DNA of 64,000 bases from Escherichia coli (GCF_048403405.1 NZ_CP183129.1), one strand, 5' to 3'; counted from the first letter of the stretch, positions 5,707-39,261 are shown. Notes: generated by a model from the sequence alone, not told the origin. A program made the numbers and translations.

Positions 5707-6210
5707 TTAAATTTTCTTATGTAATAGAGGTGAATAATCTTCCCAAAAATCCATACAAGCTTTACTTGCATAAAAGAATCCAGCGTCTGATTCATAAGAC
5801 ATAAACTGTGCAATAATAGATAGTTGTATATCTGAAAAATTAAAAACAAAATTCAAAAAATCATCGTGATCCCGATACTCAGGACATAAATATTGTTGAA
5901 TAAAATCGGATTCAAAAACCCAAAAATCATTCTTATTAAACAACGAGGCATAAATATACAGAGGGATGTAATAGCAGAATACTTTCTCAGGGAGGAATGT
6001 AATTCCTAACTCTAAAGCATAAGAGTCATCCTTTATTTTAAAATTGTTGGCTATTTCATTCCATTGTTTCTTTTGGAAAAAATTATATACAATATCCAGT
6101 TCCTCCAGCCCTGTAATATCATTTGAAATATGAGGTAATGGCTGGCATGGGAAATGAATCATAAGTTCATCATAGACTGCACTCTCGTTAGAGAAAATTA
6201 TTTTTTTCAT
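5707..6210 (-). CDS. Putative RhsC-associated immunity protein (RhsI-type)
   Basis: AT-rich ORF directly downstream of rhsC. The ATG at 6210..6208 ([20 protein letters not shown]...) overlaps the rhsC TGA (6209..6207) in an ATGA arrangement. The track start at 6228 is a TTG extension. No recognisable catalytic motifs; position is typical for an Rhs immunity gene. Confidence 0.7.
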
Positions 6211-9200
6211 TTTATTAAGCCACTGCAATCAGCTGCTGTTTTATATGCTTTATTCTCTTCTTCCATATGGGCCTTATCTCCACCACCAAAGCACTGATTA
6301 TTAATCTGCTTTCTGACCGAAGCGCACGCCAAATTTATCTCGTACCGTCTCAATATTTCTTTTCTCAGCATCTGAGGAGCGCAAGCTCTAGACTGGTTAC
6401 ATAATCTGTTTTTTTCATTTTGTAAGTCACTCAGGTTCTGGGGACTACAGTTACCACCAGGATTTACACCTGACTTATGTTCATCTGTTAATTTGTCGGC
6501 TTCTGGATTAACTTTACGGCCATATTGATCTCTGCGTTGTTGCCCACTTTGGATAACACCACCTGATGAAAATAAACCGCAACTCATCAGTGCTACAACA
6601 CTAAGAATTAACGGATTTAACCCTTGTGGGTCTATCTCTGAGATCGGATTTAACGGATACTGATAAAAATTCCATCCCCCCTTAAGCCCAATCGGATCCT
6701 GAGTGATATACCGCCCCTGCAGCGGGTCATAATAGCGGTGGCGGTTGTAATACAGGCCGGACTCCTCATCATACTGCTGACCCGGCAGGCGGATGAGCTG
6801 CTGCAGCTGATGCGGGTTCTCTTCATTCAGCAGGTTGCCCCATTCATCGTATTCTGCGTACCACGCTGTTGTCCCTTCCGTGCTGACAAGCGCCAGCGGC
6901 AGGCCGCGATGGTCGCAGTGGTACAGGTGGATTTTTCGCGCCGGCGTGTACACCGGGTCCATCTGGTTTTGCATCTGCTCCACCGTCAGGCCGCACGATG
7001 CCAGCCAGCGGCGGCTTTCCTCGCTCACCCGGTCAGTAAGGATTTCACTTTCCAGCCGGTCGAGCATCTGCACCAGCACCGGCGGGAACACCACTCTGCC
7101 ACCGTCTTCGCCGCCGGACTGCTGAAGGGCATCCGCCAGGCTGCGGCGCTGCGTTTTCGCCAGCTCACCGGTGGCGGTTTCAACTCTGATGAGTGGCGTG
7201 AAGCTCCCCGGCTGATAAACCGTCTGGATGCGGGTTCTGTCGTTCTGTATTGTGGTCAGCCGGTCGCCGTCCCAGCCGTACCAGGTCACTTCCGGTTTCC
7301 GTGACAGCGACATCCAGCCCGTCAGGTCCCGTTCACGCCGCCATACCCGTTTTGCCACCCTGCGGCCCAGCGGGTCGTAAAGATAGCGACTTTCGACCAG
7401 CGGCTCTGCATATTGTGTCCGCGTGTAGTGCACCAGCCGGTGCCGGCTGTCGTAATGATACCGGTGAGTCCGCTCATCATCCGTGCGGATAACCCCTTCC
7501 GGGATGAGGTCGGTTTTCTCTGTCAGCCTGCCGTGACGGTCATACCGGTAAAGATAGTGCGCGTCACGGGCGATACGGTTATCCGGCCACATGCTGAGGG
7601 TGCTGTCCGGGTGCAGCTCCGGGTCGGGCAGGCGGTTGCCTGCCGGGTCCGTGGCATACGGGATGCGGATATCCAGATTCGCTGCGGTGGTGTGGACGCC
7701 GGTCAGCCTGCCGGTGTCGCTGTAGCTGTAACTCCGGGTCTGGCGCGGGCTGCTGATGCGGATGAGTTCGCCGTTGTCGTTCCAGGTGTAATCGCGGTCA
7801 TACTGCAGGCTGTTCAGGTGCTGGCTCTGTAACTGCCCGGCAGAGGTGTAAGCGGTGGTGAGTTCATAACGGCCGAAGCTGCGCAGCGTTTCCCGGTGCA
7901 GGCGGTCGCGGGTGAAATCCACCAGCGGTGTGTCGCCGAGTTTCATGCCTGACAGCCAGCCGCTGCCGTAGGTCAGCCATTCCACGGCGGGCAGGCTGTC
8001 CGGTATACAGCGGTTCGCCAGTCCCTGCGCGTTGTACGCATGTCTGGTTTCATGCTGCCAGAGCAGTGCTTCCGTCTGCGGGTGATGCACCGTCTGGCGC
8101 TCACCGGTCAGGCGGCCTTTCTCATCATACCCGTAATGCACCGTCACCCGGTGGCCTTCGCTGAGATGGCTGATGCCTGTCAGCCAGCCGCGTTCGTCAT
8201 ACTGCCACTGCTCTGCAGGTTCACCCTTCACGGTGCGGTGAGTGAGGCGGTCTGCTTCGTCATAGTGCCAGTGGGTGACCAGCCCCTCATCCTCGCTGCG
8301 GATAAGTTTACCGGTCAGGTCGTGGTGATAACGCTGTGTGCGGCCGTCAAAGCCGGTTTCCTGTATCAGCCGGTCAAGTACATCGTAACGGAAGGTGGTG
8401 TGGCTGCCGTTTTCACTGGTCAGGCGGATGACCCGCCCGGCAGCATCGTATTCCATACTGCGCGTCAGACCGCCCTGCGTGGTACGAACGGGCTTTCCCC
8501 ACGCATCGTACTGTGTCCCGTTTCTGCTGCCGTCCGGGGCAATGACGGCGGTCAGGTCACCGGCGGCGTTGTATTCATACCGCGTTTCATGGCCCTGCGT
8601 GTCTTTCACCGCAATTAACTGTCCACGGCTGTCGTATGCGCGGTACTGACTCAGCCCTTCCTCGCGGTGCACCGCCGTCACCTGACCAAAACGGTCATGG
8701 TCATAACGGGTTACATAACCGGAACAGTCAGTGACGGTCAGCAACTGACCGTAACGGCTCCATGTCATGGTTTTCCGGCTGCCGGTGGCATCTTCCGTTG
8801 CGCAGGGTAAGTCACTGTGTGGATTATCATAACGGTAGCGGGTGATATCGCCGTTGTGTGCGGTTTCCTGAATCAGACGGCCGGATTCATCATATTTGCG
8901 GCGCAACTCCAGCCCGTCAGTCCCGGTGGCTGACGTTAACTGGTTGTGGTGGTTATAGTAAAATGCCGATGCCCTGCCATCCGGTGTGGTGATGCGCGTG
9001 ATGAGTCCCGTCACCACATCCGGGCTGTACTCAGTCGTCCGGCCTGCGGCATCCGTCTGTGCCTTAAGCCCGCCCACCGCGTCAAACTGACTCTGCGTGA
9101 CGCTGCCGTCCGCGTGTTCCTTTTTCACCACCCGCTTCAGCCCGCCTTCGCCCTGCGTGTGCAGCACTTCACGGCGGTCCAGACTGTCGGTGATGGTGAT

Positions 9201-10358
9201 GCGGTCTTTCTCATACTGATACGTGTAGCTTAAGCCTGCCGGGTTTAGCTGTTCTGTCACCCGCCCGTCGCTGTCGTAACGGTAACGGATATCCGGCCGG
9301 CCCGTGTGACGGTGCGCCACCATCCGGCCCCGGTATTTATCATCGTAAGTAAAGCTGCGCACCTGTGTATTGCTGCGGTCATACACCGCCGCCAGTTCGC
9401 CGCGTGGCGTCCAGCCATAGCGCACCAGCGGCGCGGCAGGTAAATTCTCCGGGTATTCCGGGTCGTGCGTCAGCCACACGGCAGACAGACGGATGCCGTT
9501 GTCCCGGCCATATTCGGTGTAACCCGGCAGGGTATCAGGAAAAACGGACGGTTCCGTCCCGCCGGAAATGGCCTGCTGCCGGGCTTCTTCTGCCCGCTGC
9601 GCCTGCGTGGTCAGTACCAGCCGGAAGTGACGCCCGGCACCATCCGTCACGCCGGTGATTTCGCCGCTGAATTCGCCGCCAGCCTCACGGTGAAACGTCT
9701 GTGTGCGCCCGAAGCGGTCCACCAGCCCGGTCAGTACCCGGTACGGCGGCAGCGGCGCGGGCAGCACCTCATCCGCCTCCGGCACCCGCTCACACCAGCC
9801 GAGTACCCACCACGGCCCCTGCGGACTGTTTGTCGCCAGATAACGATGCGGACTCAGGCGAAGCTCTTCCGGCAGCGCCTGCCAGAGTGCGGCCAGCCGG
9901 TGACCTTCATCCAGTTTCGCCACGCCGCCGCGCACCAGCCAGAGTGACTCGCTGCGGCTGTAACCGTCCTCACCGGGAAACAGGTGCTCAAAATACAGGC
10001 TTCTGCCGCCGTTATCACTGAGTGTCAGTGTGTTATCGCGCAGCTGTAAGCGGATATCCGCAGGCATTTTCCAGCCGGGGCCGAGGCTCCCCACCGGCGC
10101 GGGCGTTTTTGTCCGGTAACTGCTGTAGGTGCGGGAGAGGATGAACGGCAGCGGGCCGGGCAGGGCAAGGTCGGTTTCGCCGGGAAGGACCTTCGCACCG
10201 AGCAGCGGATTGACCGGATGGCCGGACGTCACCCCGCCGGGGCACACCGAACAGGCCACGCCGGTGGGGGCACCAATACGTACCCCGGCTGAACCCTGAA
10301 CAATGCTACCGCCATACTGCGTCATGTCGCCCTGACGCGCCGCCGGTTTTCCGCTCAT
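6207..10358 (-). CDS. rhsC: Rhs-family polymorphic toxin (YD-repeat protein) with variable C-terminal tip
   Basis: 1383-aa product; N-terminus [31 protein letters not shown] (PAAR-like), many YD repeats ([33 protein letters not shown]), and the core-ending PxxxxDPxGL region ([32 protein letters not shown]) followed by a ~140-aa divergent tip. Chromosomal context (ybfA, kdp) matches rhsC. Confidence 0.9.
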
Positions 10359-26362: not shown

Positions 26363-28027
26363 TTACTCGCCTACTTTCGCCCAGGTATCACGCAGCCCAA
26401 CGGTGCGATTAAATACCGGTTTTTCCGCCGTAGAATGGCGGCTGTCGAGGCAGAAATAACCTTCACGCTCAAACTGGAATGCTTTACCCGCTACCGCGTC
26501 TTTCAGAGACGGTTCAGCAAAGCCCTGTTTGATCACCAGCGATTCCGGGTTAATCACCGACAGGAAATCATCCGCAGCACCTGGGTTCGGCACGCTGAAC
26601 AGACGATCGTACAGGCGGATTTCAACCGGCAGCGCATGTGCCGAGCTCACCCAGTGAATAACGCCTTTCACTTTACGACCATCTGCCGGATCTTTGCTTA
26701 AGGTGTCGGCGTCATAAGTACAGAAGATGGTGGTGATATTGCCTTCGGCATCTTTCTCCACGCGTTCTGCCTTAATGACGTAAGCATTACGCAGACGCAC
26801 TTCTTTACCCAGCACCAGACGCTTGTACTGCTTGTTAGCTTCTTCGCGGAAATCGGCGCGGTCGATCCAAATCTCACCGCTAAACGGCACCTGACGGCTC
26901 CCCATTTCCGGTTTGTTCGGATGGTTCGGCATGGTAACCATTTCGCCTTCGCCCTGGTAGTTTTCGATAACCAGTTTCACCGGATCGATAACCGCCATTG
27001 CGCGCGGGGCGTTTTCGTTGAGATCTTCACGGATGCAGGATTCCAGCGACGCCATTTCAATGGTGTTGTCCTGCTTGGTCACGCCGATGCGTTTGCAGAA
27101 CTCACGAATAGAAGCCGCAGTGTAACCACGACGACGCAGACCGGAAATGGTCGGCATACGCGGGTCATCCCAGCCTTCAACGTGCTTGTCGGTCACCAGC
27201 AGGTTCAGCTTACGCTTGGACATCACAGTGTATTCCAGATTCAGGCGCGAGAATTCGTACTGGCGCGGGTGAACAGGAATGGTGATGTTGTCCAACACCC
27301 AGTCGTACAGGCGACGGTTGTCCTGGAACTCAAGCGTACACAGAGAGTGCGTAATACCTTCCAGCGCATCGCTGATGCAATGGGTGAAGTCGTACATCGG
27401 GTAGATGCACCACTTGTTGCCAGTCTGGTGGTGTTCAGCAAATTTAATGCGGTACAGCACCGGATCGCGCATTACGATAAATGGCGACGCCATGTCGATT
27501 TTCGCACGCAGGCAGGCTTTACCTTCTTCAAAACCGCCGGCACGCATTTTTTCGAACAGCGCCAGGTTCTCTTCAACGCTGCGGTCGCGGTACGGGCTGT
27601 TTTTACCCGGCTGCGTCAGGGTGCCACGGTATTCGCGGATCTGTTCCGGCGTCAATTCATCAACGTACGCCAGGCCTTTATTGATCAGTTCGATCGCATA
27701 GGCGTGGAGCTGATCAAAATAATCGGAGGAGTAACGGACGTTACCAGACCAGTGAAAACCTAACCACTCAACGTCGTTTTTGATCGACTCGACATACTCG
27801 ATATCTTCTTTTACCGGGTTAGTGTCGTCGAAACGCAGGTTGCACTGGCCTTTATAGTCCTGGGCGATCCCGAAGTTCAGGCAGATAGATTTCGCATGGC
27901 CAATATGCAGATAGCCATTCGGCTCCGGCGGGAAACGGGTGTGTACTGTGGTGTGCTTACCACTGGCCAGATCTTCATCGATGATCTGACGGATAAAGTT
28001 AGTCGGGCGGGCTTCTGCCTCACTCAT
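26363..28027 (-). CDS. glnS: Glutaminyl-tRNA synthetase
   Basis: 554 aa; class I motifs HIGH (LHIGHAKS) and KMSKS-type (VMSKRKL). Confidence 0.97.
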
Positions 28028-28246
28028 CGTGGATTCCTCAAAGCGTAAACAACGTATAACGGCGTATGATCTTATAAGCGGGACAGGCTGACAACTGTTA
28101 GTTAGTGAAAAAGTGGTTTTGCGTAAGATATTGGGGCGTTTTCTGCGCTACAGCCAGCAGATCCTCGCGCTGGAGACGTAAGGCCAAACGTCGCCAGCCT
28201 GACGCGTCTATTAAATTTCCGGATGAGCTGGCCGCAGAGTCGTAGA

Positions 28247-29008
28247 TTAATCGGCTATGATTAAACGCGTCGATAAGGACGCAAGCGTTCTACGCGTCTG
28301 CCCATCAAGCTGATTATCCGTAATAATCTCTGTCAGTTCATTAAGATGCGCGATATTAAACAGCGACCATGAACCGTATTTTGAGCTGTCAGCCAGGAGA
28401 ATTTTGCGCGAAGCATGCGCGATAAGATCGCGTTTTAGTGCGGCTTTCTCTTCCGTGGGTGCTGTAATACCCTTTTCAAGATCCCAGCTGTTACAGCTTA
28501 AAAATGCCACGTCCGGCCAGGTATTTTGCAGCAATTTACGACCATGTTCGCCAATGCAGGACTGGCTGGAGTCGTCGATACGTCCACCGATAATCGTCAC
28601 TTCAATCTGCTTGAATTCAGCCAAAAAAAGCGCGATATGCAGGTCGCTGGTGATCACGCGAAGCGGTAAATGTGTAATCTGCCGCGCAAGTTCAATCATT
28701 GTCGTACCGGCATCAAGGACGACGGAATCCCCCGCTTTGACCATTGACGCCGCTGCGCTGGCGATGGCATGTTTTTCCGCCAGGCTGCGCTGCATTTTCT
28801 CATGGGTAGTCGGTTGGGTAGGAATAAACCGGTTGAGGGTCACACCGCCGTGTGTACGGCTGATAACACCCTGCTCATCGAGTTTTATCAGGTCTCGACG
28901 AATCGTGGCCGGCGACGCATTGGTTACCGCCACCAGCTCATCAACGGTGACCAGATTATGGCTTTTCAGGTAATCCATGATCTGCTCTAACCGGTTATAT
29001 CCCTTCAT
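28247..29008 (-). CDS. DeoR-family transcriptional regulator (island gene)
   Basis: 253 aa with N-terminal HTH ([37 protein letters not shown]) and a DeoR-type C-terminal sugar-phosphate sensor domain. Its start codon lies 1 nt from the stop of the upstream PdxA-family gene. Confidence 0.8.
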
Positions 29009-29009
29009 T

Positions 29010-29996
29010 TTATTCTCGCGAAATCTGCATTGCTAACTGGATGGAAACTGCCATGCTCTCAGACTTGGCTTTTCCTGTCCAGGCAATATCAAACGCGGTG
29101 CCGTGGTCGGCAGAAGTGCGAATAAATGGCAACCCGGCGGTGATATTCACCCCATCATAAAATCCAAGCAGTTTTAAAGGGATATGCCCCTGATCGTGGT
29201 ACATAGCCACTACCATATCGAATAGCCCTTCATGGCATTGCATAAACACGGTATCTGGCGGGCACGGGCCAGTAACATCAATATCTTCGGCCTGCATTGC
29301 TTCAATCGCAGGCGCGATAATCTCGATTTCTTCAGTGCCGAATAAACCGTGTTCCCCTGCATGTGGATTTACACCCGCCACGGCAATACGCGGACGCTCA
29401 ATACCAACACGTTTCAGGAAGTGGTTCGCAACTCGAATAACCGTTTTGACCCTTTCACCATTCAAAGTATCCAGGAATTTACGCAGTGAGATATGCGTCG
29501 AAATATGGATAACCTTGAGCTTATCGGTATAGAGCACCATCGCGTACTCTTTGCTGCCGGTAAGATGGGCCAGCAATTCCGTATGCCCCGGATAGTTATG
29601 CCCGCCAAGATGCAACGCTTCTTTATTCAGCGGCGCAGTGGCTATGGCTTTCACCTCGCCTGATAAGGCCAGGGCCGTTGCACGTTTGATACAGCGATAC
29701 GCTAAATCGCCTGCCGCAGCCTGTACCACTCCGGGTGTCAGCGCATCGGGGTTAGCCAGCGGCTCATCCATCACGTTAATCACGCCGGGAGCAAAATGGG
29801 CGTCGCACACCTTTTCAATGACGCGTAACTCTGCCTTCGGCGTGATATTCATCGCCATAATACGTCTCAGCGTGCGCACACAGCCCACCACCACCACCGG
29901 GGCACCAGCAAGCCCGGCTTCGCTCAGGGATTTAATAATGATCTCCGGGCCAATACCCGCCGGGTCGCCCATCGTTACCGCAATAATATTATTCAC
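29010..29996 (-). CDS. PdxA-family NAD-dependent dehydrogenase (PdxA2-like)
   Basis: 328 aa; N-terminus [22 protein letters not shown] matches the PdxA GxPxGIGPE signature, and [11 protein letters not shown] matches the conserved metal-binding His region. Confidence 0.8.
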
Positions 29997-31227
29997 TACG
30001 CTTCTCCTCGATAAAATTCAGAACCTGATGCAACGTGGTCTCATCGCCAAACCCACCGGCTTTCGTCATCACCGAACGGGACCAGACGCCGCCCAGAAAG
30101 TGACCGTATGGAACGCATTGCGCCACCTTCGCCGTAATACGAAATCCGGTCGCGCCTAACGCACTGGCTGTTGCCATTGCGACATCACCACCAGAGAGAT
30201 AAAGCGCATCGGGCATTGCGCGAAGCAGAACTTGCCGGGTAAGTTCGCCAAGAAACCGGCAAATTTTTTCCCCAAGCGCAGCGCGACTCATCTGCCAACG
30301 CTGGCAAAGGGTGTCGATCTGGTGCCTTGCTACAGAATCGTTACAGGTGTGGACAATGCAGTGGTCGCCTTTCTGCAAGGCCTGCACAATACGCGCGTCA
30401 TAGTCACTGGCATTGCCTGCCAGAATGTGTTCAACATCGACGTATATCTGTGTGATACGTGGGTGTGAATGAAGTGTGGCGATCTGCCGTTGAGCGATTT
30501 CGCTCATTGAACCAATAATGGCCAGCACGGTGGGTGGCGGCATAATCGTGGAGCGCCGGGCAACGGCATCACAAATACCAGCGGAGCCGACCAGCAGCAG
30601 CGGTTGTTTAGCCTGCATCACAGCGGCAGCGATGCGATCCAGGTCGCTGTCCGTCTGCGCATCTATCACGCCAATCCACGGTTGCTCATAAGACAAATGG
30701 CTGAGCTGAGAAACCGTAACGGGCTGGCATGGAATGGCCGTCTGCAACCGGATGATGTCCGCAATTCGGGCGCTCAATACCGGGGTTTTCGGATCGCTGG
30801 CAAACTCGGTTTCCGTTATCCGCACACCGTTTACCCAACACTCACCGGCCACTGTGGTCCTTCCCGCCTGAGGAAATGCGGGGGCAACCACTGCGCCCGT
30901 TATACCGCATGCCTTCATCAGGGCTTCAATTTCTGCGCCAATATTGCCTCGCAGCGTGGAATCTATCTTTTTAATCACGAGCGGAGGGTTATTCGCCAGA
31001 GGGAGATGACTCATCAGCGAGGTTATTTTCATCGCCGCCAGCTTAGGATCCATCGCCCGGCTGTCGCTGTTAATCACCCATACGCTGGCATCACCGCGAT
31101 AAGGCATTTCAAAGGCCACATCAACTGTATGCCCCACCTGCGCCAGGCTTACCCCCGCGTCATTGGCTCCCGTGAAATCATCGGCAACGACGAGAATGCT
31201 CGGCTTAGTGATTCCCTTTTCCATCAT
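29989..31227 (-). CDS. DUF1537-family four-carbon acid-sugar kinase
   Basis: N-terminal signature VVADDFTGANDAG characteristic of OtnK/DtnK-type kinases; 8-nt overlap with the downstream PdxA-family gene. Start chosen at the ATG preceded by GGAG (MMEKGITKPS...); the track ORF starts 13 codons upstream. Confidence 0.75.
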   Translation of the reverse strand: MMEKGITKPSILVVADDFTGANDAGVSLAQVGHTVDVAFEMPYRGDASVWVINSDSRAMDPKLAAMKITSLMSHLPLANNPPLVIKKIDSTLRGNIGAEIEALMKACGITGAVVAPAFPQAGRTTVAGECWVNGVRITETEFASDPKTPVLSARIADIIRLQTAIPCQPVTVSQLSHLSYEQPWIGVIDAQTDSDLDRIAAAVMQAKQPLLLVGSAGICDAVARRSTIMPPPTVLAIIGSMSEIAQRQIATLHSHPRITQIYVDVEHILAGNASDYDARIVQALQKGDHCIVHTCNDSVARHQIDTLCQRWQMSRAALGEKICRFLGELTRQVLLRAMPDALYLSGGDVAMATASALGATGFRITAKVAQCVPYGHFLGGVWSRSVMTKAGGFGDETTLHQVLNFIEEKRSE

Positions 31228-31264
31228 CACTCCAGGTTGTTTTATGATAACAATGATTATATTC

Positions 31265-31278
31265 AATCACGATTGATT
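31265..31278. promoter_or_regulatory. Operator-like inverted repeat AATCA-cgat-TGATT in the island divergent promoter
   Basis: Read directly; shares the TGATT/AATCA half-site with the second palindrome at 31360..31375. Confidence 0.4.
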
Positions 31279-31359
31279 AAATGTGAGCAAGCTCAAGTTA
31301 TTAATCACTCGAATAAATTATAAAATTAGACCATGTTACGTAGGCTACGGCATTTTGAA

Positions 31360-31375
31360 TGATTGAATTCAATCA
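31360..31375. promoter_or_regulatory. Perfect 16-bp palindrome TGATTGAATTCAATCA in the island divergent promoter
   Basis: Read directly; lies about 20 bp upstream of the Fe-ADH GTG start, consistent with a repressor operator. Confidence 0.45.
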
Positions 31376-31393
31376 CCAGAAGAGAGGTTATTT

Positions 31394-32551
31394 GTGGTAA
31401 TTATCAATAGCACGATACTGAGCGGCGCAGGCGCTATCCCTTCCCTGACGTCGCTCTTACCCGACATCAGAAAAATGCTGCTGGTCACTGACCGTAATAT
31501 TGCGCAGCTCGACGGTGTGCAGCAGATTCGCGCCTTACTGGAAAAGCACTGCCCGCAGGTTAACGTTATCGATAATGTGCCCGCAGAGCCCACGCATCAT
31601 GATGTGCGCCAGCTAATGGACGCCCCTGGCGATGCCTCTTTTGATGTGGTGGTCGGGATCGGCGGTGGCAGCGTGTTGGATGTGGCGAAGCTGCTATCGG
31701 TGCTTTGCCATCCACAATCACCAGGGCTGGATGCGCTGCTTGCGGGTGAAAAACCGACTCAGAGGGTGCAATCATGGTTGATTCCTACAACCGCCGGAAC
31801 CGGCTCAGAAGCCACGCCGAATGCGATTCTGGCAATCCCTGAGCAAAGCACGAAGGTGGGTATTATTTCCCCGGTGCTGTTACCAGACTATGTGGCGCTT
31901 TTCCCGGAACTGACCACCAGCATGCCCGCGCATATTGCGGCGTCCACGGGCATTGATGCTCTTTGCCACTTACTGGAGTGTTTTACCGCGACCGTGGCAA
32001 ATCCGGTCAGCGATAACGCGGCGCTGACTGGGTTAAGTAAGCTTTTCCGGCACATTCAACCCGCCGTGAACGATCCTCAGGATCTGCGCGCAAAACTGGA
32101 AATGCTGTGGGCGTCTTACTATGGCGGCGTAGCGATAACCCATGCGGGCACGCATCTCGTTCATGCGCTCTCCTACCCGTTAGGTGGCAAATATCATCTG
32201 CCGCATGGCGTCGCGAATGCCATCTTGCTGGCGCCGTGCATGGCGTTTGTTCGCCCCTGGGCGGTCGAGAAATTTGCCCGGGTCTGGGATTGCATTCCCG
32301 ATGCGGAAACCGCCCTGAGCGCGGAAGAAAAATCTCATGCCCTGGTGGCCTGGCTACAGGCATTAGTCAATCAACTCAAGCTACCCAACAATCTCGCGGA
32401 TCTCGGCGTACCGCCAGAGGATATTGCCTCTCTTAGCGAGGCGGCACTGAACGTGAAGCGCCTTATGAACAATGCGCCGTGCCAGCTTGATCTACAGGAC
32501 GTACAGGCCATTTACCAAACACTGTTTCCGCAACATCAATTTAAGGAATAA
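31394..32551 (+). CDS. Iron-containing (group III) alcohol dehydrogenase family oxidoreductase
   Basis: 385 aa; NAD-binding GGGSxxD motif (VGIGGGSVLDVAKLL) and conserved His cluster (HALSYPLGGKYHLPHGVANA). GTG start preceded by GAGAGG. Confidence 0.8.
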   Translation: MVIINSTILSGAGAIPSLTSLLPDIRKMLLVTDRNIAQLDGVQQIRALLEKHCPQVNVIDNVPAEPTHHDVRQLMDAPGDASFDVVVGIGGGSVLDVAKLLSVLCHPQSPGLDALLAGEKPTQRVQSWLIPTTAGTGSEATPNAILAIPEQSTKVGIISPVLLPDYVALFPELTTSMPAHIAASTGIDALCHLLECFTATVANPVSDNAALTGLSKLFRHIQPAVNDPQDLRAKLEMLWASYYGGVAITHAGTHLVHALSYPLGGKYHLPHGVANAILLAPCMAFVRPWAVEKFARVWDCIPDAETALSAEEKSHALVAWLQALVNQLKLPNNLADLGVPPEDIASLSEAALNVKRLMNNAPCQLDLQDVQAIYQTLFPQHQFKE

Positions 32552-32554
32552 ATC

Positions 32555-33442
32555 ATGCCGAAAACCATTGAAGGTGTATTAACCGCCATCGTCACCCCGT
32601 TTACCGCGACCGGCAGTCTGAATATCCCGGCGTTAAAAGTGCAGGTGAATCGTCAACTGGAAGCGGGTAACGCGATTTTTTGCGGCGGCACCAACGGCGA
32701 GTTTTTTGTGTTGAATGAACAGGAGAAGCTCAGCGTTACGCAAACCTGCGTGGATGAAGTGGCTGGTCGTGCGCCGGTCGTGGCACACATTGGCGAGATC
32801 TCGACGCGCGAAACGATTCGTCTGGGTCAGCAGATTGAAAAACTTGGCGTAGATGCTGTGTCGGTCATTACCCCTTACTTCGTACCGCTGAAACAGGAAG
32901 AGTTGATTGCGCATTACAGCGCAATTGCCGACGCGCTGAGCATTCCGATGTTTCTCTATAACATCCCGGCCCGCACTGGCAATACGATCCAGCCGGAAAC
33001 CGCGCGTGCTCTGGCGTCGCATCCCAATATCATTGGGATTAAAGACAGCGCCGGAAGCGACGAAAGCCTGAAGGGTTTTCTCGATGCTGTGCGCAACATT
33101 GACGGCTTTAATGTACTCAACGGCCCGGATTCGCTGATCCATAAAGGGTTTGTCGAGGGGTGTTCAGCCTGTATCTCTGGGCTCGCCAACGTCGCACCGC
33201 GGGAAATCAATGCTATCTGGTCTCGCGTCCATGCCGGTGATATTGAAGGGTCTTATGAAGCACAGGAGAGTGTAACGGGCCTGCGTACCGACCTTTATAA
33301 AGTAGCGTTCTCCCCGGCTGCGGTGAAAAAAGCGTTGCAGCTTATGGGGCATGATGTTGGTGATAGCCGCTACGCGGTTAATTTCACGCCTGAACAGATC
33401 AGCGAGATTCAACAAATTATTCGTCATTATAACATTAATTAA
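32555..33442 (+). CDS. DHDPS/N-acetylneuraminate-lyase-family class I aldolase or dehydratase
   Basis: 295 aa; GTNGEF motif (CGGTNGEFFVLNEQEK), the Tyr-containing ITPYF segment and the Schiff-base lysine context IGIKDSAG, typical of DapA/NanA-family enzymes. Confidence 0.8.
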   Translation: MPKTIEGVLTAIVTPFTATGSLNIPALKVQVNRQLEAGNAIFCGGTNGEFFVLNEQEKLSVTQTCVDEVAGRAPVVAHIGEISTRETIRLGQQIEKLGVDAVSVITPYFVPLKQEELIAHYSAIADALSIPMFLYNIPARTGNTIQPETARALASHPNIIGIKDSAGSDESLKGFLDAVRNIDGFNVLNGPDSLIHKGFVEGCSACISGLANVAPREINAIWSRVHAGDIEGSYEAQESVTGLRTDLYKVAFSPAAVKKALQLMGHDVGDSRYAVNFTPEQISEIQQIIRHYNIN

Positions 33443-33501
33443 ATTAACTCTATTATCCAGCCCGCGATAAAGTTTAGATAAAGAGAATAAAGGATTACTC
33501 C

Positions 33502-34260
33502 ATGTTTTTGTGGTTTATGCAGCCAGATATCTGGCTCACTTTAATTACCCTCACCTTTCTGGAAATTATTCTTGGGGTGGATAATATTATTTTTCTTTCA
33601 CTGGTGGTGGCAAAACTTCCGTTATCACAACAAAATATGGCGCGTAAACTGGGTTTAAGCTGCGCGATGATTATGCGGATATTATTGCTGATATCCATTG
33701 CGTGGCTTTCACATATTACCCAGCCGCTTTTTACCGTGCTGACGCTGGAGATTTCGTTCCGCACGTTGATTCTGCTCGGGGGCGGGCTGTTCCTGATTTA
33801 TAAAGCGATACAGGAGATACGCGAAGAGCTGTCGCCCGCGCAGGAAGACGAACATGGCAGCGGATCGCGGCAACTGTCGTTGTGCGGTGCCATCGTACAG
33901 ATAATGCTGCTCGATATCGTGTTTAGCCTGGATTCGGTGATCACCGCCGTCGGCCTTTCTCAGCATATATTTATCATGATTGCCGCCGTAATGATTGCCG
34001 TCGGTGTCATGATGTTTGCGGCGAAAACAATTGGTGATTTCGTTAACGCCACGCCGTCAATAAAAATACTGGCGTTAACCTTTTTATTATTTGTCGGTGT
34101 ATTGCTGGTTGCCGATAGTCTCAACATTCATATTGCCAAAGAGTATCTCTACTTCGCGATATTTTTCTCATTAAGTGTTGAGACACTCAATATTATCCGT
34201 GAAAGAAGAAATAAAAAAGTTTCGACATTGATCGAAACGCATGAATCGCACTCGCATTAA
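33502..34260 (+). CDS. TerC-family integral membrane protein
   Basis: 252 aa, multiple TM segments, paired TerC motifs GVDNIIF and LDIVFSLDSV. Confidence 0.7.
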   Translation: MFLWFMQPDIWLTLITLTFLEIILGVDNIIFLSLVVAKLPLSQQNMARKLGLSCAMIMRILLLISIAWLSHITQPLFTVLTLEISFRTLILLGGGLFLIYKAIQEIREELSPAQEDEHGSGSRQLSLCGAIVQIMLLDIVFSLDSVITAVGLSQHIFIMIAAVMIAVGVMMFAAKTIGDFVNATPSIKILALTFLLFVGVLLVADSLNIHIAKEYLYFAIFFSLSVETLNIIRERRNKKVSTLIETHESHSH

Positions 34261-34295
34261 TAAATCTATTACCGACTTTAAGATGGAGTCTAACT

Positions 34296-35465
34296 ATGTC
34301 TGTAGCCCTTATTCGTGACGGCGTCATCCGTCCATCCGAAAACGATTCGCATGTGCTTACCGCCATGCTGCCCTCGTCCTGCCCACAAAACCACGCGGCG
34401 AATATTCTGCCTTTGCCGGATGGCGCGTTAATGTGCGTCTGGTTTGCGGGAACGCAGGAAGGTATTGCCGATATTTCTGTCTGGGGATCGCGATTGCCCG
34501 CTGGCGGGATGCAGTGGAGCGATGCGGTCAAACTTTCCCACGATGACACGCGTTCAGAGCAAAACCCAGTGCTGTTTCTCGCGCCGGATAACGTGCTGTG
34601 GCTGCTATGGACCGCACAAATATCCGGGAATCAGGACACCGCCATCGTCCGCTACCGTAAGTCAGACGACCTCGGACAAACCTGGGGCGAGATTGCCACG
34701 CTGCTCGATAAACCCGGCACGTTCATTCGCCAGCCGATCACGGTGCTTGATAACGGCAACTGGCTGCTGCCCGTCTTTTATTGCCGTACCCAACCCGGTG
34801 AAAAATGGGTCGGCAATGATGATATCAGCGCAGTGAAAATTTCCGCTGACGGTGGTCACTCCTGGCGCGATGTCGTGGTGCCGCAAAGTCTCGGCTGCGT
34901 TCATATGAATATCACAATGCTGCACGACAGTACGTTGGTTGCTCTCTTTCGAAGCCGTTGGGCAGACAACATCTATATCAGCCATTCAGTGGACAACGGC
35001 GAGAGTTGGTCGGTGCCGCAAGCTACCGAATTGCCCAACAACAATTCGTCTATTCAGGTAACGACGCTTGCCAGCGGCGAACTGGCGCTGGTGTACAACG
35101 CGATGAGTGCGGCAGGCGCAGTAGAACGTCGCGCGTCGCTTTATGACGAAATCGACGATGGCGACGACAGCCGCAAAGAACCGACAGCCGTCGGACGCTC
35201 CGCTTTCTGGGGGGCCCCACGCGCGCCGATGACGGTAGCGATTTCTGCCGATGGTGGGAAAAGCTGGCCGTGGCGGCGCAATCTCGATGAAGGCGACGGC
35301 TACTGCATGACCAACAATTCCCTGGAAAAGCTAAATCGTGAGTTCTCCTACCCCAGCATCAAACAAAGCCCGGACGGTACGCTACATATCGCTTACACCT
35401 GGTGGCGTCAGGCCATCAAGTACGTGCGCATCTCCCCCGAGTGGGTTAAGGGGCAGGCATCATGA
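34296..35465 (+). CDS. BNR/Asp-box repeat protein (sialidase-like beta-propeller), apparently cytoplasmic
   Basis: 389 aa with four Asp-box motifs (SDDLGQTW, SADGGHSW, SVDNGESW, SADGGKSW). The N-terminus MSVALIRDGVIRPSENDSHV has no signal-peptide features. Confidence 0.75.
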   Translation: MSVALIRDGVIRPSENDSHVLTAMLPSSCPQNHAANILPLPDGALMCVWFAGTQEGIADISVWGSRLPAGGMQWSDAVKLSHDDTRSEQNPVLFLAPDNVLWLLWTAQISGNQDTAIVRYRKSDDLGQTWGEIATLLDKPGTFIRQPITVLDNGNWLLPVFYCRTQPGEKWVGNDDISAVKISADGGHSWRDVVVPQSLGCVHMNITMLHDSTLVALFRSRWADNIYISHSVDNGESWSVPQATELPNNNSSIQVTTLASGELALVYNAMSAAGAVERRASLYDEIDDGDDSRKEPTAVGRSAFWGAPRAPMTVAISADGGKSWPWRRNLDEGDGYCMTNNSLEKLNREFSYPSIKQSPDGTLHIAYTWWRQAIKYVRISPEWVKGQAS

Positions 35466-35932
35466 TTATCGGTAATCTCAACCATTTGTCGCTGGCGGGG
35501 CTTCCCGCCTGGGTGAGAAATATTCTGCTGTGCCCGGAGTGTTCGTTATCGGCGTTATCCGCCAGAGAGGACGGTCGCTGGCAACCTGAAGGATGTCGGT
35601 GGTTCTGCACGCTGGGAACTTCAGACACGCAACCCGCCGAACTCCGCCATACGGAGTATCACCATCTGTGGGCCGATATCCAGGTGGTGATTACTGGTTG
35701 TGAGGGCATTAATGCGGGAACGCGGCCCATCGCTCGCGAAAACGATGAAGAACGTAAGCCCGATCTGTTTATCGCCCCATCCCCTGAAAACAGTGTCGCC
35801 ATCACTCTACACCCCGGTGATTTCGCCGTCTTTATGCCTGAGGAACCTCACCAGGCGCTGTGCGCGATTGGCGCGGCTACGTCAGTACGCAAAGCGGTCT
35901 TTAAGGTACCGCGCGACATGCTGGAAGCCTAA
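35462..35932 (+). CDS. YhcH/YjgK/YiaL (DUF386) family protein
   Basis: 156 aa; C-terminal segment LHPGDFAVFMPEEPHQALCAIG resembles the conserved PGxFxVFxPxEPH motif of the YhcH/EbgC-like family. 4-nt overlap with the upstream BNR gene. Confidence 0.7.
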   Translation: MIIGNLNHLSLAGLPAWVRNILLCPECSLSALSAREDGRWQPEGCRWFCTLGTSDTQPAELRHTEYHHLWADIQVVITGCEGINAGTRPIARENDEERKPDLFIAPSPENSVAITLHPGDFAVFMPEEPHQALCAIGAATSVRKAVFKVPRDMLEA

Positions 35933-35945
35933 AAGGAGAGAAAAA

Positions 35946-37226
35946 ATGACAATGGAAATGATCCTGGCATTAGGAATACTGGTCCTGATGATCGTGCTGA
36001 TCATGTCGGACAAAATGCCATTTGGCGCACCGCCACTGCTTGCGTGTTTATTGCTGGTTGTCTCGGGACTTTCGACCGTTCAACAGGCTTTTGCCGGATT
36101 CGTCAATCCAAGCGTGGTGATGATTGCAGGGTTTATGGTGGTCATGGCAGCGCTACAAAAAACCCGGCTTATCAGCAACGTTAAATCTGCGATGATAAGC
36201 CTGGTCAATAAAGGCAGTTACCGCAGCTACGGGCTGTTGTTAGTCATTGTTATGCTGGGTGCCAGTCTTGCAGGCACCGGCGCGACCGGTTATTACGTGC
36301 TGATTCTGTCGCTGGTATCCACCATTCCGTACAGTAAAAAGCTACCAACATCGAAATTAATGATGCCCCTGGGATTTGCCACCAACCACCCGCTTCTTCC
36401 TATCAATCTCGCGCTTCTCTTTGGCGTTACGGCGACCGTACTCGAAACCGCGGGTTTTCATCAGGAGATTTCGATGGGGCGCTTTGCGCTGGTGAATCTC
36501 ATCATGTCAGCGGCGTTCCTCGCATGGAGTCTTATTGCCTACCGTTTTCTTCCGGATCATCCCATTGCGGATGCTTCCGAGGATGCGCTGGCGGCACGCG
36601 AGGAAACGTTTAACGCCCTTCCTGCCTGGAAAGAATATTGCACTATTGCCGCATTCGCTGTCAGCGTTATCGGCATGATGCTAATGAACATTCTGGGAAA
36701 TATCGCCTTCGTTATTCCGGGTCTTGCGGGTGCGTTTGTTCTGATGATCGATGTACTGGACTTTAAAGAAGTTCGCGATCATATGGGAGCGCCGGTCATT
36801 TTAATGATGGCGGGGGTGATCGGTGTAGCTGATGCACTGGCGGGCACCGGCTTTACGGCGATGGTTGGCGATGCCGTTGCAGGTGTGCTCGGTTCTGGCG
36901 TCTCACCGTTTGTATTTATTGTCGCCTTTGCTTTGCTTACCAGTACCTGCGCCACCTTCACGGGTTCGAATATGGGGTCTGTTTATATTTTTGCCCCCAT
37001 CGCCATTGCCGCCTGTACCAGCCTTGGGCTTAACCCGACCGCTGCAGCGATTGCGGTGGTGATTTCAGGCTGGAACGGCGGCTATATGCCTATTGACGGA
37101 ATGCCAGCCATGATCCTCGGAATGGGGAAATACAAACTTCCCGAATTCTGGGTGTTCTCTGTACCAATGTATCTCATCCGCATTCTGGCGCTTTGTGCAG
37201 GCGCTGTTTTTATCTTCCCAATGTAA
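35946..37226 (+). CDS. Ion-transporter-superfamily anion permease (GntP/CitMHS/DASS-like), putative sugar-acid importer
   Basis: About 426 aa of polytopic membrane protein from the ATG at 35946 preceded by AGGAGA. The track ORF 35700..37226 carries an 82-codon non-membrane extension that overlaps the YhcH gene in another frame. Confidence 0.7.
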   Translation: MTMEMILALGILVLMIVLIMSDKMPFGAPPLLACLLLVVSGLSTVQQAFAGFVNPSVVMIAGFMVVMAALQKTRLISNVKSAMISLVNKGSYRSYGLLLVIVMLGASLAGTGATGYYVLILSLVSTIPYSKKLPTSKLMMPLGFATNHPLLPINLALLFGVTATVLETAGFHQEISMGRFALVNLIMSAAFLAWSLIAYRFLPDHPIADASEDALAAREETFNALPAWKEYCTIAAFAVSVIGMMLMNILGNIAFVIPGLAGAFVLMIDVLDFKEVRDHMGAPVILMMAGVIGVADALAGTGFTAMVGDAVAGVLGSGVSPFVFIVAFALLTSTCATFTGSNMGSVYIFAPIAIAACTSLGLNPTAAAIAVVISGWNGGYMPIDGMPAMILGMGKYKLPEFWVFSVPMYLIRILALCAGAVFIFPM

Positions 37227-37234
37227 TCTCAGAC

Positions 37235-37272
37235 AAAAAAAGCGGCAGAGAAGATCCCTGCCGCTTTTTATT
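37235..37272. terminator. Bidirectional rho-independent terminator between the island permease and nagE
   Basis: Hairpin agcggcagagaagatccctgccgct flanked by an A-run and a T-run; a REP-like palindrome gatgcgacgctgccgtgtcgcatc follows at 37277..37300. Confidence 0.65.
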
Positions 37273-37314
37273 GTTGGATGCGACGCTGCCGTGTCGCATC
37301 AGGTATAAAGCAGA

Positions 37315-39261
37315 TTACTTTTTGATTTCATACAGCGGCGTTTGACCCGCCACGACATGGCCCTGAGCTTTAATGATCAAGCCGCTGAAATCGTCGATAT
37401 TGCTGCAAACCACCGGGCTAATCATCGAGCGGGCGTTAGCGTTCAGGTAATCCAGATCCATTTCCAGAATCGGTTGTCCTGCGCTTACCTGCGCGCCCTC
37501 TTCCACCAGACGTTTAAAACCTTTACCTTCCAGCGCTACGGTGTCGATACCCATATGGACGACGATCTCCGCGCCTTTTTCGGTTTCCAGGCAGAACGCG
37601 TGGTTGGTATTGAAGATTTTCACGATTGTCCCTGCGGCTGGTGATACGACGATTTTATCTGTCGGTTTCACCGCCACACCGTCACCCACCGCTTTGCTGG
37701 CGAATGCTTCGTCAGGAACCTGATCCAGTGCCACAACATCACCGGTAATCGGCGATACCAGCTCCGCGACAGACACCGCGTTTGGTATAGCCTGCGGTTT
37801 TGCTACAGGCGCGGCAGTTGCAGGCGCAGTTTCAGCTGACGTAGCGGCTACCGGACCACGGGCAACAACTTTCTTCATTGCATCGCCAATGGATTCCGCT
37901 TTCGCGCCAACAATCACCTGAATAGTCTGTTTGTTCAGTTTCACTACCCCAGAAGCACCCAGCCGTTTACACATCGCATCGTTGACGCGAGCCGAGTCAA
38001 CCACGGTCAGGCGCAGACGAGTAATACAGGCGTCAATTGCTTTCAGGTTGTCAGTGCCGCCAACCGCAGCAATATAGTTGGTCGCCAGTTGATTGAGGCC
38101 TTCTTCAGTGTTGCTGTTGGCTTCTTCAGTAACGATCTCATCTTCTTTATCTTCACGACCCGGCGTTTTCAGGTTGAACATGCGGATAACCAAACTGAAC
38201 ACCACGAAGTAGATAGCGAAGAAGACAACACCCATCACCAGCAGCATCCAGACGTTCTGGCTGGCGGCCGGCAGGTTATACATCAACGCGTAGTCGATAG
38301 CCCCCGCAGAGAAGGAGAAGCCCGCGTGGATACCCAGCAGCGTTGCCACAAACAGGCTGATACCGGTCAGCAGTGCGTGCAGGAGGTACAGCAGCGGCGC
38401 AAGGAACATGAACAGGAATTCCAGCGGCTCAGTCACACCGGTCAGGAACGCAGTAACAGCAACAGAAAGCAGCATACCGCCAACCATCGGACGACGCTCT
38501 TTCGGTGCTGCAAAGTACATCGCCAGCGCCGCACCCGGCAGACCGAACATCATGATCGGGAAGAAGCCGGACATGAACATCCCCGCGGTGCCGTCACCGG
38601 CATAGAAGCGGTTGATGTCACCGTGGAAAACCGTACCCGCCGCGTTGGTGAATTCACCAATCTGGAACCAGGCGATGGTGTTCAGTACCTGATGCAGACC
38701 GGTTGGGATCAGCAGACGGTTGATGAAACCAAAGATACCGGAACCCAGCGCGCCCGCAGAAACGATCCACTCGCCGCCTGCATGGATAGCGTGCTGTACC
38801 GGCGGCCAGACGTAACCAAAAATGGCCGCCAGCACCAGGCAGAAGAAGCCGGTGGCAATCGGCACAAAGCGTTTGCCGCCGAAGAAACTCAGGAAGTCCG
38901 GCAGTTTAATATCGGACCAACGGTTATAAGCTGCGCCACCAACCAGACCGGTAATGATACCCGCCAGTACACCCATGTTAATTTCCGGGTTGATGGTCAC
39001 CATCGCTTTGGTTAACACAAAGTAACCTACCGCACCCGCCAGCGCCGCCGCACCTGCGCTGTCTTTCGACCAGCTGGATGCCACACCGATGGCGAAGATT
39101 AATGCGAGGTTATCAAAAATCGCACCGCCCGCCTGGGCAATAAACGCAACGTTAAGTAAATCTGGCTGACCGAATCGCAGCAACAGCGCCGCCACCGGCA
39201 GCACCGCGATAGGGAGCTGTAACGCCCTACCGAGTCGCTGGAAAAAACCTAAAATATTCAT
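37315..39261 (-). CDS. nagE: PTS N-acetylglucosamine-specific EIICBA component
   Basis: 648 aa; EIIC membrane domain, EIIB Cys region (IDACITRLRL) and C-terminal EIIA domain. Confidence 0.95.
   Translation of the reverse strand: MNILGFFQRLGRALQLPIAVLPVAALLLRFGQPDLLNVAFIAQAGGAIFDNLALIFAIGVASSWSKDSAGAAALAGAVGYFVLTKAMVTINPEINMGVLAGIITGLVGGAAYNRWSDIKLPDFLSFFGGKRFVPIATGFFCLVLAAIFGYVWPPVQHAIHAGGEWIVSAGALGSGIFGFINRLLIPTGLHQVLNTIAWFQIGEFTNAAGTVFHGDINRFYAGDGTAGMFMSGFFPIMMFGLPGAALAMYFAAPKERRPMVGGMLLSVAVTAFLTGVTEPLEFLFMFLAPLLYLLHALLTGISLFVATLLGIHAGFSFSAGAIDYALMYNLPAASQNVWMLLVMGVVFFAIYFVVFSLVIRMFNLKTPGREDKEDEIVTEEANSNTEEGLNQLATNYIAAVGGTDNLKAIDACITRLRLTVVDSARVNDAMCKRLGASGVVKLNKQTIQVIVGAKAESIGDAMKKVVARGPVAATSAETAPATAAPVAKPQAIPNAVSVAELVSPITGDVVALDQVPDEAFASKAVGDGVAVKPTDKIVVSPAAGTIVKIFNTNHAFCLETEKGAEIVVHMGIDTVALEGKGFKRLVEEGAQVSAGQPILEMDLDYLNANARSMISPVVCSNIDDFSGLIIKAQGHVVAGQTPLYEIKK

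Follow-up and report, generated by a model that had tools for sequence, protein, structure and literature searches.

A cytoplasmic sialidase-fold protein encoded between glnS and nagE in Escherichia coli: a candidate entry enzyme for a proposed Dha-to-D-threonate pathway

What might a sialidase-like protein without an export signal do inside an Escherichia coli cell? The question is raised by one gene in the 64,000-nucleotide stretch of E. coli DNA analysed here (GCF_048403405.1 NZ_CP183129.1; hereafter the window). The initial annotation had placed an ORF with four Asp-boxes at 34296..35465 on the plus strand, and both are exactly as it described. The ORF, hereafter the BNR gene, opens with ATG and encodes 389 aa, and the pattern S-x-D-x-G-x-x-W matches its product four times (SDDLGQTW at residue 123, SADGGHSW at 183, SVDNGESW at 231 and SADGGKSW at 317). 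By our own estimate from typical residue frequencies, about 0.005 such matches are expected by chance in a protein of 389 aa, so the repeats are real, far beyond chance. The BNR_2 profile of Pfam (PF13088) covers residues 43-365 with E=1e-63, and the protein has the features of a six-bladed beta-propeller; the proposal of a sialidase-type propeller therefore stands. A single-sequence search of the PDB with the BNR protein gave nothing significant (best E=0.12), and no NCBIfam model matches it. A profile of 41 sequences reached GH33 and Amuc_1547-type structures in the PDB with E-values of 1e-15 to 1e-16, and GH33 sialidases are the nearest structures. The counterpart in E2348/69 is WP_000109434.1, which RefSeq names 'sialidase family protein'.

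The N-terminus carries no sign of export. Hydropathy is low (the maximum 15-residue Kyte-Doolittle mean within the first 60 residues is 1.5), a search of the protein for a lipobox found none, and no RR-x-F-L-K Tat motif is visible in it. An in-frame stop lies 17 codons 5' of the ATG, which rules out a missed signal peptide, and GGAG is found 8 nt 5' of the same ATG. No orthologue out of 81, from 80 species, begins with a hydrophobic segment; in homologues at a greater distance (30-40% identity), N-terminal hydrophobic extensions are frequent. The protein therefore has none of the features (Sec, Tat or lipobox) of a secreted or periplasmic glycosidase, in agreement with what had been read from the N-terminus before. 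Given the lack of an export signal and the presence of importers in the operon, we conclude that the BNR protein acts on an imported substrate, and the earlier suggestion of intracellular action is upheld.

The active site offers the first clues to the chemistry. GH33 enzymes are recognized by features that include a carboxylate-binding Arg triad with the Arg of an N-terminal (F/Y)RIP motif (bioRxiv 10.1101/2022.06.28.497753). [quoted passage not shown] A motif scan found no [FY]RIP anywhere in the BNR protein, so that the absence noticed by eye in the initial annotation is real. We used the GH33 enzyme BDI_2946 (4fj6) as the reference in a profile alignment, and the equivalences given here come from that alignment and from motif spacing, not from superposed coordinates. 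Two members of the 4fj6 Arg triad, the second and the third, have counterparts in Arg219 ('FRSR') and Arg309 ('PRAP'). The place of the RIP Arg is taken, by motif spacing, by His33 ('QNHAAN'), four residues ahead of the aligned strand; the RIP residues of 4fj6 fall just outside the printed alignment. The GH33 triad is thus incomplete in the BNR protein, with two of its Arg matched and the (F/Y)RIP Arg missing. Glu55 pairs with the acid/base Asp of 'SVDLQ' in 4fj6, 22-25 residues past the RIP site. Tyr352 is present in the context 'FSYPSI', of which we take the 'SYPS' portion to resemble the GH33 nucleophile motif 'YS(D/S)L'. His203 occupies the position of the Glu that is paired with the nucleophile Tyr, and this position is His in the BNR clade and Gln in distant homologues.

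These positions are strongly conserved. Across the 81 orthologues (60-100% identity to the BNR protein), His33 is invariant, and Glu55, Arg145, His203, Arg219, Arg221, Asn248-250, Arg309, Glu349, Tyr352 and Arg371 are likewise invariant or nearly so. Conservation extends to an insert that is specific to the clade (R278 R279 x S L Y D E I D D). Arg145 lies just before strand 156-162, taken as the inner strand of blade 3, a position that is only suggestive of a polar pocket. Given that the retaining core is mostly kept (Tyr352, Glu55, Arg219 and Arg309), the chemistry is probably still ketoside hydrolysis. The earlier caution that it may differ from that of canonical sialidases is right as far as the loss of the RIP Arg is concerned, but the difference appears to lie in the substrate instead, for which the conserved gene neighbourhood points to a sugar diacid that yields D-threonate and not to sialic acid.

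In E. coli that neighbourhood is an accessory island of nine genes between glnS and nagE (Table 1), with the DeoR, PdxA2 and DtnK genes on the minus strand and the genes for Fe-ADH, the DHDPS-family aldolase, TerC, BNR, YhcH and the SLC13 permease on the plus strand. The 6 kb around the BNR gene match several human isolates at 100% identity and EPEC E2348/69 at 98.9%. Of 5426 complete E. coli genomes, 1047 (19%) carry the BNR gene, always on the chromosome and always in a single copy, with an identity of at least 97.8%. A 2026 genome paper describes 'GR 6 nagE..glnS' as an uncharacterised region common to ExPEC strains and AIEC LF82 (PMC12928451).

Table 1. Features of the glnS-nagE island, with coordinates counted from the first nucleotide of the window
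Feature	Coordinates	Strand	Remarks
DeoR/GlpR-family transcription regulator of the island	28247..29008	-	
PdxA2, D-threonate 4-phosphate dehydrogenase	29010..29996	-	NF002891, 681 bits vs cut-off 583
DtnK, D-threonate kinase (DUF1537 family)	29989..31224	-	NF047819, 532 bits vs cut-off 450; 31224 is the RefSeq start, longest ORF reaches 31266
Divergent promoter region	31267..31393	.	Two inverted repeats, read by eye
Fe-ADH, iron-containing alcohol dehydrogenase	31394..32551	+	Best matches lactaldehyde reductase and 4-hydroxybutyrate dehydrogenase, no match reaching its cut-off
DHDPS/NAL-family class I aldolase	32555..33442	+	YNIP Tyr and IKD Lys motifs
TerC-family integral membrane protein	33502..34260	+	252 aa, polytopic
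BNR gene	34296..35465	+	389 aa, BNR_2 sialidase-fold, no signal peptide; predicted cytoplasmic ketosidase
YhcH/YjgK/YiaL (NanQ-like)	35462..35932	+	Predicted anomerase/ring-opener for the released keto-acid sugar
SLC13/DASS permease, di/tricarboxylate-type importer	35946..37226	+	Start as in RefSeq E2348/69

Curated equivalog models identify DtnK and PdxA2 in the island, and their orthologues in Leclercia also score above the NCBIfam cut-offs (521 and 671 bits). The DHDPS-family aldolase reaches neither the DapA nor the NanA cut-off, and TIGR02313, a model for a C7-diacid aldolase, is among its matches as well. Where E. coli has TerC, most other species have an SSS-family symporter. The stop codon of the BNR gene and the start of the YhcH gene overlap (ATGA), and YhcH is translationally coupled to the BNR gene. 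Both inverted repeats of the divergent promoter region use the half-site TCAATC/GATTGA, the first at 31263-31276 and the second, a perfect palindrome (TGATTGAATTCAATCA), at 31360-31375; from their sequence we consider them a candidate DeoR operator. A scan of 28000-37400 for consensus promoters and terminators gave counts not above those of shuffled sequence.

Relatives of the BNR gene were found by a genome scan in at least 585 species, and the following counts are of neighbours up to 10 kb away at the best 80 loci, from 80 species. The commonest of these neighbours is an SDR (67/80), and no SDR is encoded in the E. coli island. An SSS-family Na+/solute symporter lies directly 5' of the BNR gene in 65 loci, PdxA2 and a DHDPS-family aldolase are each nearby in 63, Fe-ADH in 62, DtnK in 61, YhcH in 57 and DeoR in 52. 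In six of the 80, TerC and SLC13 stand in for the SSS symporter and SDR, a variant seen among these best loci only in E. coli, the Klebsiella oxytoca group and Kluyvera-type loci. Altogether, the BNR gene and the D-threonate module are co-localised in about 78% of the 80 species, in shuffled gene orders. Plant-associated or pectinolytic bacteria make up most of the 80 loci (the K. oxytoca group, Kosakonia, Pantoea, Erwinia, Pectobacterium, Dickeya, Rahnella, the Bacillus pumilus/safensis group, Vibrio and Clostridium). Some Pantoea and Bacillus loci have a transporter, BNR and SDR only and lack both aldolase and kinase genes up to 10 kb away; in the Pantoea loci that lack catabolic genes, a tartrate dehydrogenase and a sigma-54 regulator nearby give no clear lead.

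More divergent loci keep the functions and exchange the parts. Four types of acid-sugar transporter (SSS, TRAP, SBP_bac_5 ABC and SLC13/DASS) occur among BNR loci. The locus of a 46%-identical BNR protein encodes an SBP_bac_5 ABC transporter, an esterase, TerC, Fe-ADH, DHDPS, a DUF1537 kinase and PdxA, and that of a 40%-identical one has the full enzyme set (DUF1537, SDR, PdxA, Fe-ADH and DHDPS) with a TRAP DctPQM transporter. An actinobacterial locus (45% identity) combines an Opp-like ABC transporter, DeoR, PdxA and DUF1537 with an aldolase of the HpcH/HpaI type, whose best matches are the diacid aldolases GarL and HpaI, and with an aldo-keto reductase. Apparent fusions, judged from length and annotation in AFDB, join a 57%-identical BNR domain to an HpcH/HpaI aldolase domain-containing protein of 648 aa and a 45%-identical one to a 711-aa Devosia '4-hydroxythreonine-4-phosphate dehydrogenase'. 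AFDB also holds BNR orthologues at 52-53% identity from Aspergillus section Nigri and A. oryzae/flavus; the fungal homologue examined for its neighbours (P0124) has no informative ones. Two distant homologues adjoin a TonB-type receptor (P0150) and a GH2 gene (P0143), contexts that give no information on function either.

The conserved linkage, the non-orthologous displacements and the fusions show the BNR protein to be a partner of the aldolase, reductase, kinase and dehydrogenase in a single pathway. We consider it likely that it is a hydrolase of sialidase fold that works in the cytoplasm and is coupled to a pathway through aldolase, reductase and D-threonate. From a pyruvate-releasing aldolase and an aldehyde reductase one would expect a 2-keto-3-deoxy acid to be split into pyruvate and an aldehyde, which is then converted to D-threonate. 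Given that the product of the reduction would be D-threonate, the aldehyde should already have a carboxylate, and the substrate would therefore be a C7 2-keto-3-deoxy diacid. The most likely such sugar is Dha (3-deoxy-D-lyxo-hept-2-ulosaric acid), an acid sugar of pectin rhamnogalacturonan-II (RG-II) that occurs in its side chain D (10.64898/2026.03.13.711244, preprint). In our own Fischer derivation, the D-lyxo configuration of Dha places the C4 and C5 hydroxyls left and the C6 hydroxyl right. Cleavage between C3 and C4, reduction at C4 and renumbering from the carboxylate then give C2-OH left and C3-OH right, which is (2S,3R)-trihydroxybutanoate, or D-threonate. Other candidates were rejected: aldol cleavage of Kdo would give D-arabinose and not a C4 acid, DAH would yield D-erythrose, and C6 diacids would lead to a C3 semialdehyde that is taken by glycerate kinases, not by DUF1537 kinases. 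A diacid substrate fits the DASS and TRAP transporters, the GarL/HpaI-like replacement aldolase and the secondary match to TIGR02313, and it also fits the likeness of the Fe-ADH to 4-hydroxybutyrate dehydrogenase, a succinate-semialdehyde reductase. The distribution of the orthologues agrees with a pectin sugar, concentrated as they are in plant-associated or pectinolytic taxa, Aspergillus section Nigri included.

In the scheme that we propose, the substrate would be imported by the SLC13/DASS permease in E. coli and by SSS, TRAP or SBP_bac_5 ABC transporters elsewhere. The BNR enzyme would cut a ketosidic bond, with Tyr352 as nucleophile, Glu55 as acid/base and the C1 carboxylate held by His33, Arg219 and Arg309; one of Arg145, Arg221, Arg371, Arg278 or Arg279 would be the partner of the C7 carboxylate. 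The YhcH/NanQ-like protein may equilibrate the freed anomer with the open chain needed by the aldolase, and the DHDPS-family enzyme would split 4,5,6-trihydroxy-2-oxoheptanedioate into pyruvate and 2,3-dihydroxy-4-oxobutanoate. Fe-ADH would reduce this aldehyde to D-threonate, and DtnK and PdxA2 would convert D-threonate to DHAP and CO2.

Ketosidic hydrolysis of an imported Dha glycoside is the most economical role for the BNR protein at the entry of this scheme. The imported substrate would be small, a glycoside or another anomeric derivative of a 3-deoxy-2-ulosaric acid; here we infer the substrate, the aglycone and the catalytic steps alike. That the enzyme is a cytoplasmic, retaining Dha ketosidase, and not a sialic-acid enzyme, is the reading we favour, with a confidence that falls a little short of even. 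Several observations run against it. The SSS, TRAP, SBP_bac_5 ABC and DASS families carry free sialic acid or small acids, so the imported substrate may be only mono- or disaccharide-sized, and monosaccharide-sized import puts the need for a glycosidase in doubt. The loci without an aldolase or kinase within 10 kb also count against this model, and neither the SDR of 67/80 loci nor TerC has a role in the proposed scheme. Nor are these bacteria known to grow on Dha.

The strongest competitor, which we regard as possible and clearly less probable, retains both the pathway and the sugar acid and changes the bond. The BNR protein could remove beta-L-Araf from O5 of Dha, as in the Araf-beta1,5-Dha of free RG-II side chain D, or it could open or hydrate some form of Dha, such as a dehydrated, anhydro or lactone monosaccharide, possibly together with the neighbouring SDR. 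Free side chain D is released from RG-II by heat or acid (10.64898/2026.03.13.711244, preprint). However, the conserved residues at positions for C1-carboxylate binding and C2 attack suit a ketosidase better than an arabinofuranosidase, and the E. coli island is without an SDR. We also know of no sialidase-fold lactonase.

It is rather unlikely that the BNR protein is a glycosidase or ketosidase for another acid sugar, with an indirect link to D-threonate; in this case DUF1537 and PdxA2 might serve 4-hydroxythreonine and PLP salvage, or the use of an imported free tetronate. Against such a sugar, we know of no natural 2-keto-3-deoxy acid besides Dha from which a D-threo C4 acid would arise. 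PMC12928451, citing Thiaville et al. 2016, assigns DUF1537/PdxA2 to 4-hydroxythreonine and PLP metabolism and not to sugar catabolism, a PLP-related role that would agree with this alternative, as would the scores of the aldolase and Fe-ADH below every curated cut-off and the absence of the catabolic genes from some loci. Against it, DtnK and PdxA2 score above the cut-offs of curated D-threonate equivalogs, and the co-localisation in about 78% of the 80 species persists through shuffled orders, replacements and fusions.

A genuine exo-alpha-sialidase acting on imported sialosides seems very improbable, even though GH33 sialidases are the nearest structures, a NanQ-like gene and a NAL-family lyase adjoin, and some RefSeq records use 'exo-alpha-sialidase' as the name. 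Invariant His residues stand where GH33 enzymes have the first triad Arg and the Glu that partners Tyr, neither NCBIfam nor the single-sequence PDB search yields a significant match, and the NAL-family lyase reaches 114-148 bits with NanA models that have cut-offs of 281-382. The partner genes form and consume D-threonate, not ManNAc, and the taxa are plant-associated. As far as we know, E. coli is regarded as sialidase-negative. Similarly, a non-catalytic, binding or regulatory propeller that merely looks like a sialidase is very improbable: there are many BNR propellers without enzymatic activity, and the canonical catalytic residues are partly changed here, but the polar residues of the sialidase active site are strictly invariant across phyla, and the gene is embedded among, and sometimes fused to, genes for catabolic enzymes.

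Returning to the Dha ketosidase, the BNR gene itself is a known, generically annotated family member, and it is the predicted function in a path from Dha to D-threonate that would be new. Our literature search found no published Dha catabolic pathway and nothing that ties a sialidase-family gene to D-threonate; searches on nagE/glnS with neuraminidase, and on Pectobacterium/Dickeya with sialidase, found nothing relevant. According to a 2026 preprint, the routes by which other gut microbes process several of the secreted products of RG-II are unconfirmed. In the literature covered, only PMC12928451 mentions the E. coli cluster; citing Thiaville 2016, it also points to a similar one in S. meliloti.

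More tentatively than for the enzyme alone, we suggest that the glnS-nagE island, together with the corresponding loci of at least 585 species, represents the first catabolic pathway for Dha, in which a new family of ketosidases feeds DtnK and PdxA2 and allows RG-II to be scavenged. If correct, the BNR protein would found a family of cytoplasmic ketosidases with a His/Arg/Arg plus Tyr/His/Glu site, apart from GH33 and GH143, and sialidase-fold enzymes would gain a new specificity and a variant catalytic constellation. The D-threonate kinase/dehydrogenase module has been characterised and, to our knowledge, has no established natural feedstock; the pathway would be a natural source of D-threonate for DtnK and PdxA2. 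B2/ExPEC E. coli and soft-rot bacteria would scavenge an RG-II by-product that is freed by acid, by heat or by primary degraders of the Bacteroides type, and dietary pectin would be linked to the fitness of pathogenic E. coli lineages and soft-rot plant pathogens. The annotation 'exo-alpha-sialidase', which is now spreading in databases, would be corrected. The island is in addition a conserved marker region of ExPEC/AIEC-type E. coli.

From the perspective of known systems, the BNR protein is only 15-19% identical to GH33 exo-alpha-sialidases such as those of Micromonospora viridifaciens (1eur/1eut), human cytosolic Neu2 (1snt) and the IT-sialidase of Ruminococcus gnavus (4x47). It differs from them in having His33 for the RIP Arg, His203 for the Glu partner and Glu in place of Asp as the acid/base, in the extra invariant Arg 145, 221 and 371 together with 278/279 of the clade-specific insert, and in a gene context that is D-threonate-forming and not nan-type.

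Activity of sialidase-fold enzymes on non-sialic 3-deoxy-ulosonic acids has precedents in KdhAB, for Kdo, and BT_1020, for Dha. The N-terminal domain of BT_1020 (PDB 5mqs, 'Sialidase BT_1020') is a sialidase-like propeller that acts on Dha, the same sugar that we propose here. We take BT_1020 to be the founding member of GH143, and the BNR protein lacks the close structural or sequence kinship to its propeller domain that would place it in that family. In Bacteroides thetaiotaomicron, BT1020 removes RG-II side chain D (10.64898/2026.03.13.711244, preprint), and pectin PULs of Bacteroides contain GH33 genes (PMC4769552). In the KdhAB/KdoH systems of Francisella, Helicobacter and Legionella, a sialidase-like subunit cleaves a ketoside of Kdo, a non-sialic 3-deoxy-2-ulosonic acid (PMC3573668). 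Compared by description, these systems are unlike BNR in being two-component, membrane-anchored and non-catabolic, and in trimming LPS. The partner of KdhA is a small inner-membrane subunit, whereas the TerC of the island is no small anchor.

The steps after hydrolysis share their logic with the pathways for glucarate/galactarate (GarL-GarR-GarK) and homoprotocatechuate (HpaI), in which a 2-keto-3-deoxy diacid gives pyruvate and an acid semialdehyde that is then reduced and phosphorylated. The proposed scheme would parallel the glucarate pathway (GarL, GarR and GarK) with one more carbon, and would differ from the Gar and HpaI pathways in its C7 trihydroxy diacid, its C4 product D-threonate and its glycosidase step. 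The known DtnK/PdxA2 module was described for free D-threonate, and the kinase and dehydrogenase of the island pass both curated models. D-threonate catabolism by DtnK and PdxA2 is credited to Zhang et al. 2016 PNAS in PMC9997740. Compared with that module, the island adds BNR, an aldolase and a reductase upstream, and with these it would make D-threonate inside the cell.

E. coli, the K. oxytoca group and Kluyvera differ from most other species, in which an SSS-family symporter and an SDR are the usual neighbours of the gene for the sialidase-fold BNR protein: in their place stand a membrane protein of the TerC family and a permease of the SLC13 family. L003, a distant metagenomic locus, also has a TerC gene close to the cluster. 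In Clostridium caldaquaticum (L079), an SLC13 permease with 78% identity to that of the E. coli island adjoins the cluster copy, about 1.7 kb into the locus, while the other cluster genes there reach only 26-61%. This permease could reflect horizontal transfer of the transporter.

The D-threonate kinase DtnK of the E. coli island has only 51-59% identity to the Klebsiella, Leclercia and Enterobacter kinases (L009-L036), whereas the flanking island genes mostly have 72-89% in the same comparison (YhcH, 57-69%). Both versions of the kinase pass the D-threonate kinase model. Because DtnK is less conserved than the genes on either side of it, sequence comparison suggests that dtnK was replaced in place or evolved fast. 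In the intergenic region between the divergent dtnK and Fe-ADH (iron-containing alcohol dehydrogenase) genes, the half-site TCAATC/GATTGA occurs in a pair of inverted repeats, one of them a perfect palindrome. Both repeats are candidate operators for the DeoR regulator of the island.

Coordinates of features in the window and in locus L012
Feature	Window	Other locus	Remark
dtnK	29989-31266
Inverted repeat, half-site TCAATC/GATTGA	31263-31276
Perfect 16-bp palindrome TGATTGAATTCAATCA	31360-31375		Just upstream of Fe-ADH start
TerC / SLC13 vs SSS / SDR positions	33502-34260 and 35946-37226	L012 8587-9999 and 11639-12316
Clade-specific BNR insertion	about 35103-35219		Residues 270-308
Rhs element core protein and ISAs1-family transposase	4058-4906, 6207-10358

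The cytoplasmic clade of BNR proteins has a specific insertion, within which the motif R278-R279-x-S-L-Y-D-E-I-D-D is invariant, and which is missing from distant, often signal-bearing homologues. The pLDDT drops to 81-83 in this segment, which could form a lid or a loop that binds carboxylate. To judge from length and annotation only, the BNR domain appears to be fused naturally to other modules in three AFDB entries (A0A257H979, A0A1I1JV56 and A0A9P1JZ79): an HpcH/HpaI aldolase in a protein of 648 aa, a PdxA-type dehydrogenase in one of 711 aa from Devosia, and a further module in one of 724 aa from Azospirillum.

Elsewhere in the window, GC content is anomalous, with 0.40 between 4 and 6 kb and 0.62 between 8 and 10 kb. 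The anomaly coincides with a transposase of the ISAs1 family and the core protein of an Rhs element (1383 aa, 2632 bits). These have no relation to the BNR island.

The Pantoea rodasii group (L037-L045) has the SSS-BNR-SDR trio, and the aldolase, kinase and PdxA2 (D-threonate 4-phosphate dehydrogenase) genes are absent within 10 kb of it. The neighbours of the trio in L037 include a LysR (TtdR-like) regulator, a sigma-54 regulator and a tartrate dehydrogenase, which passes its equivalog cut-off (574 vs 470).
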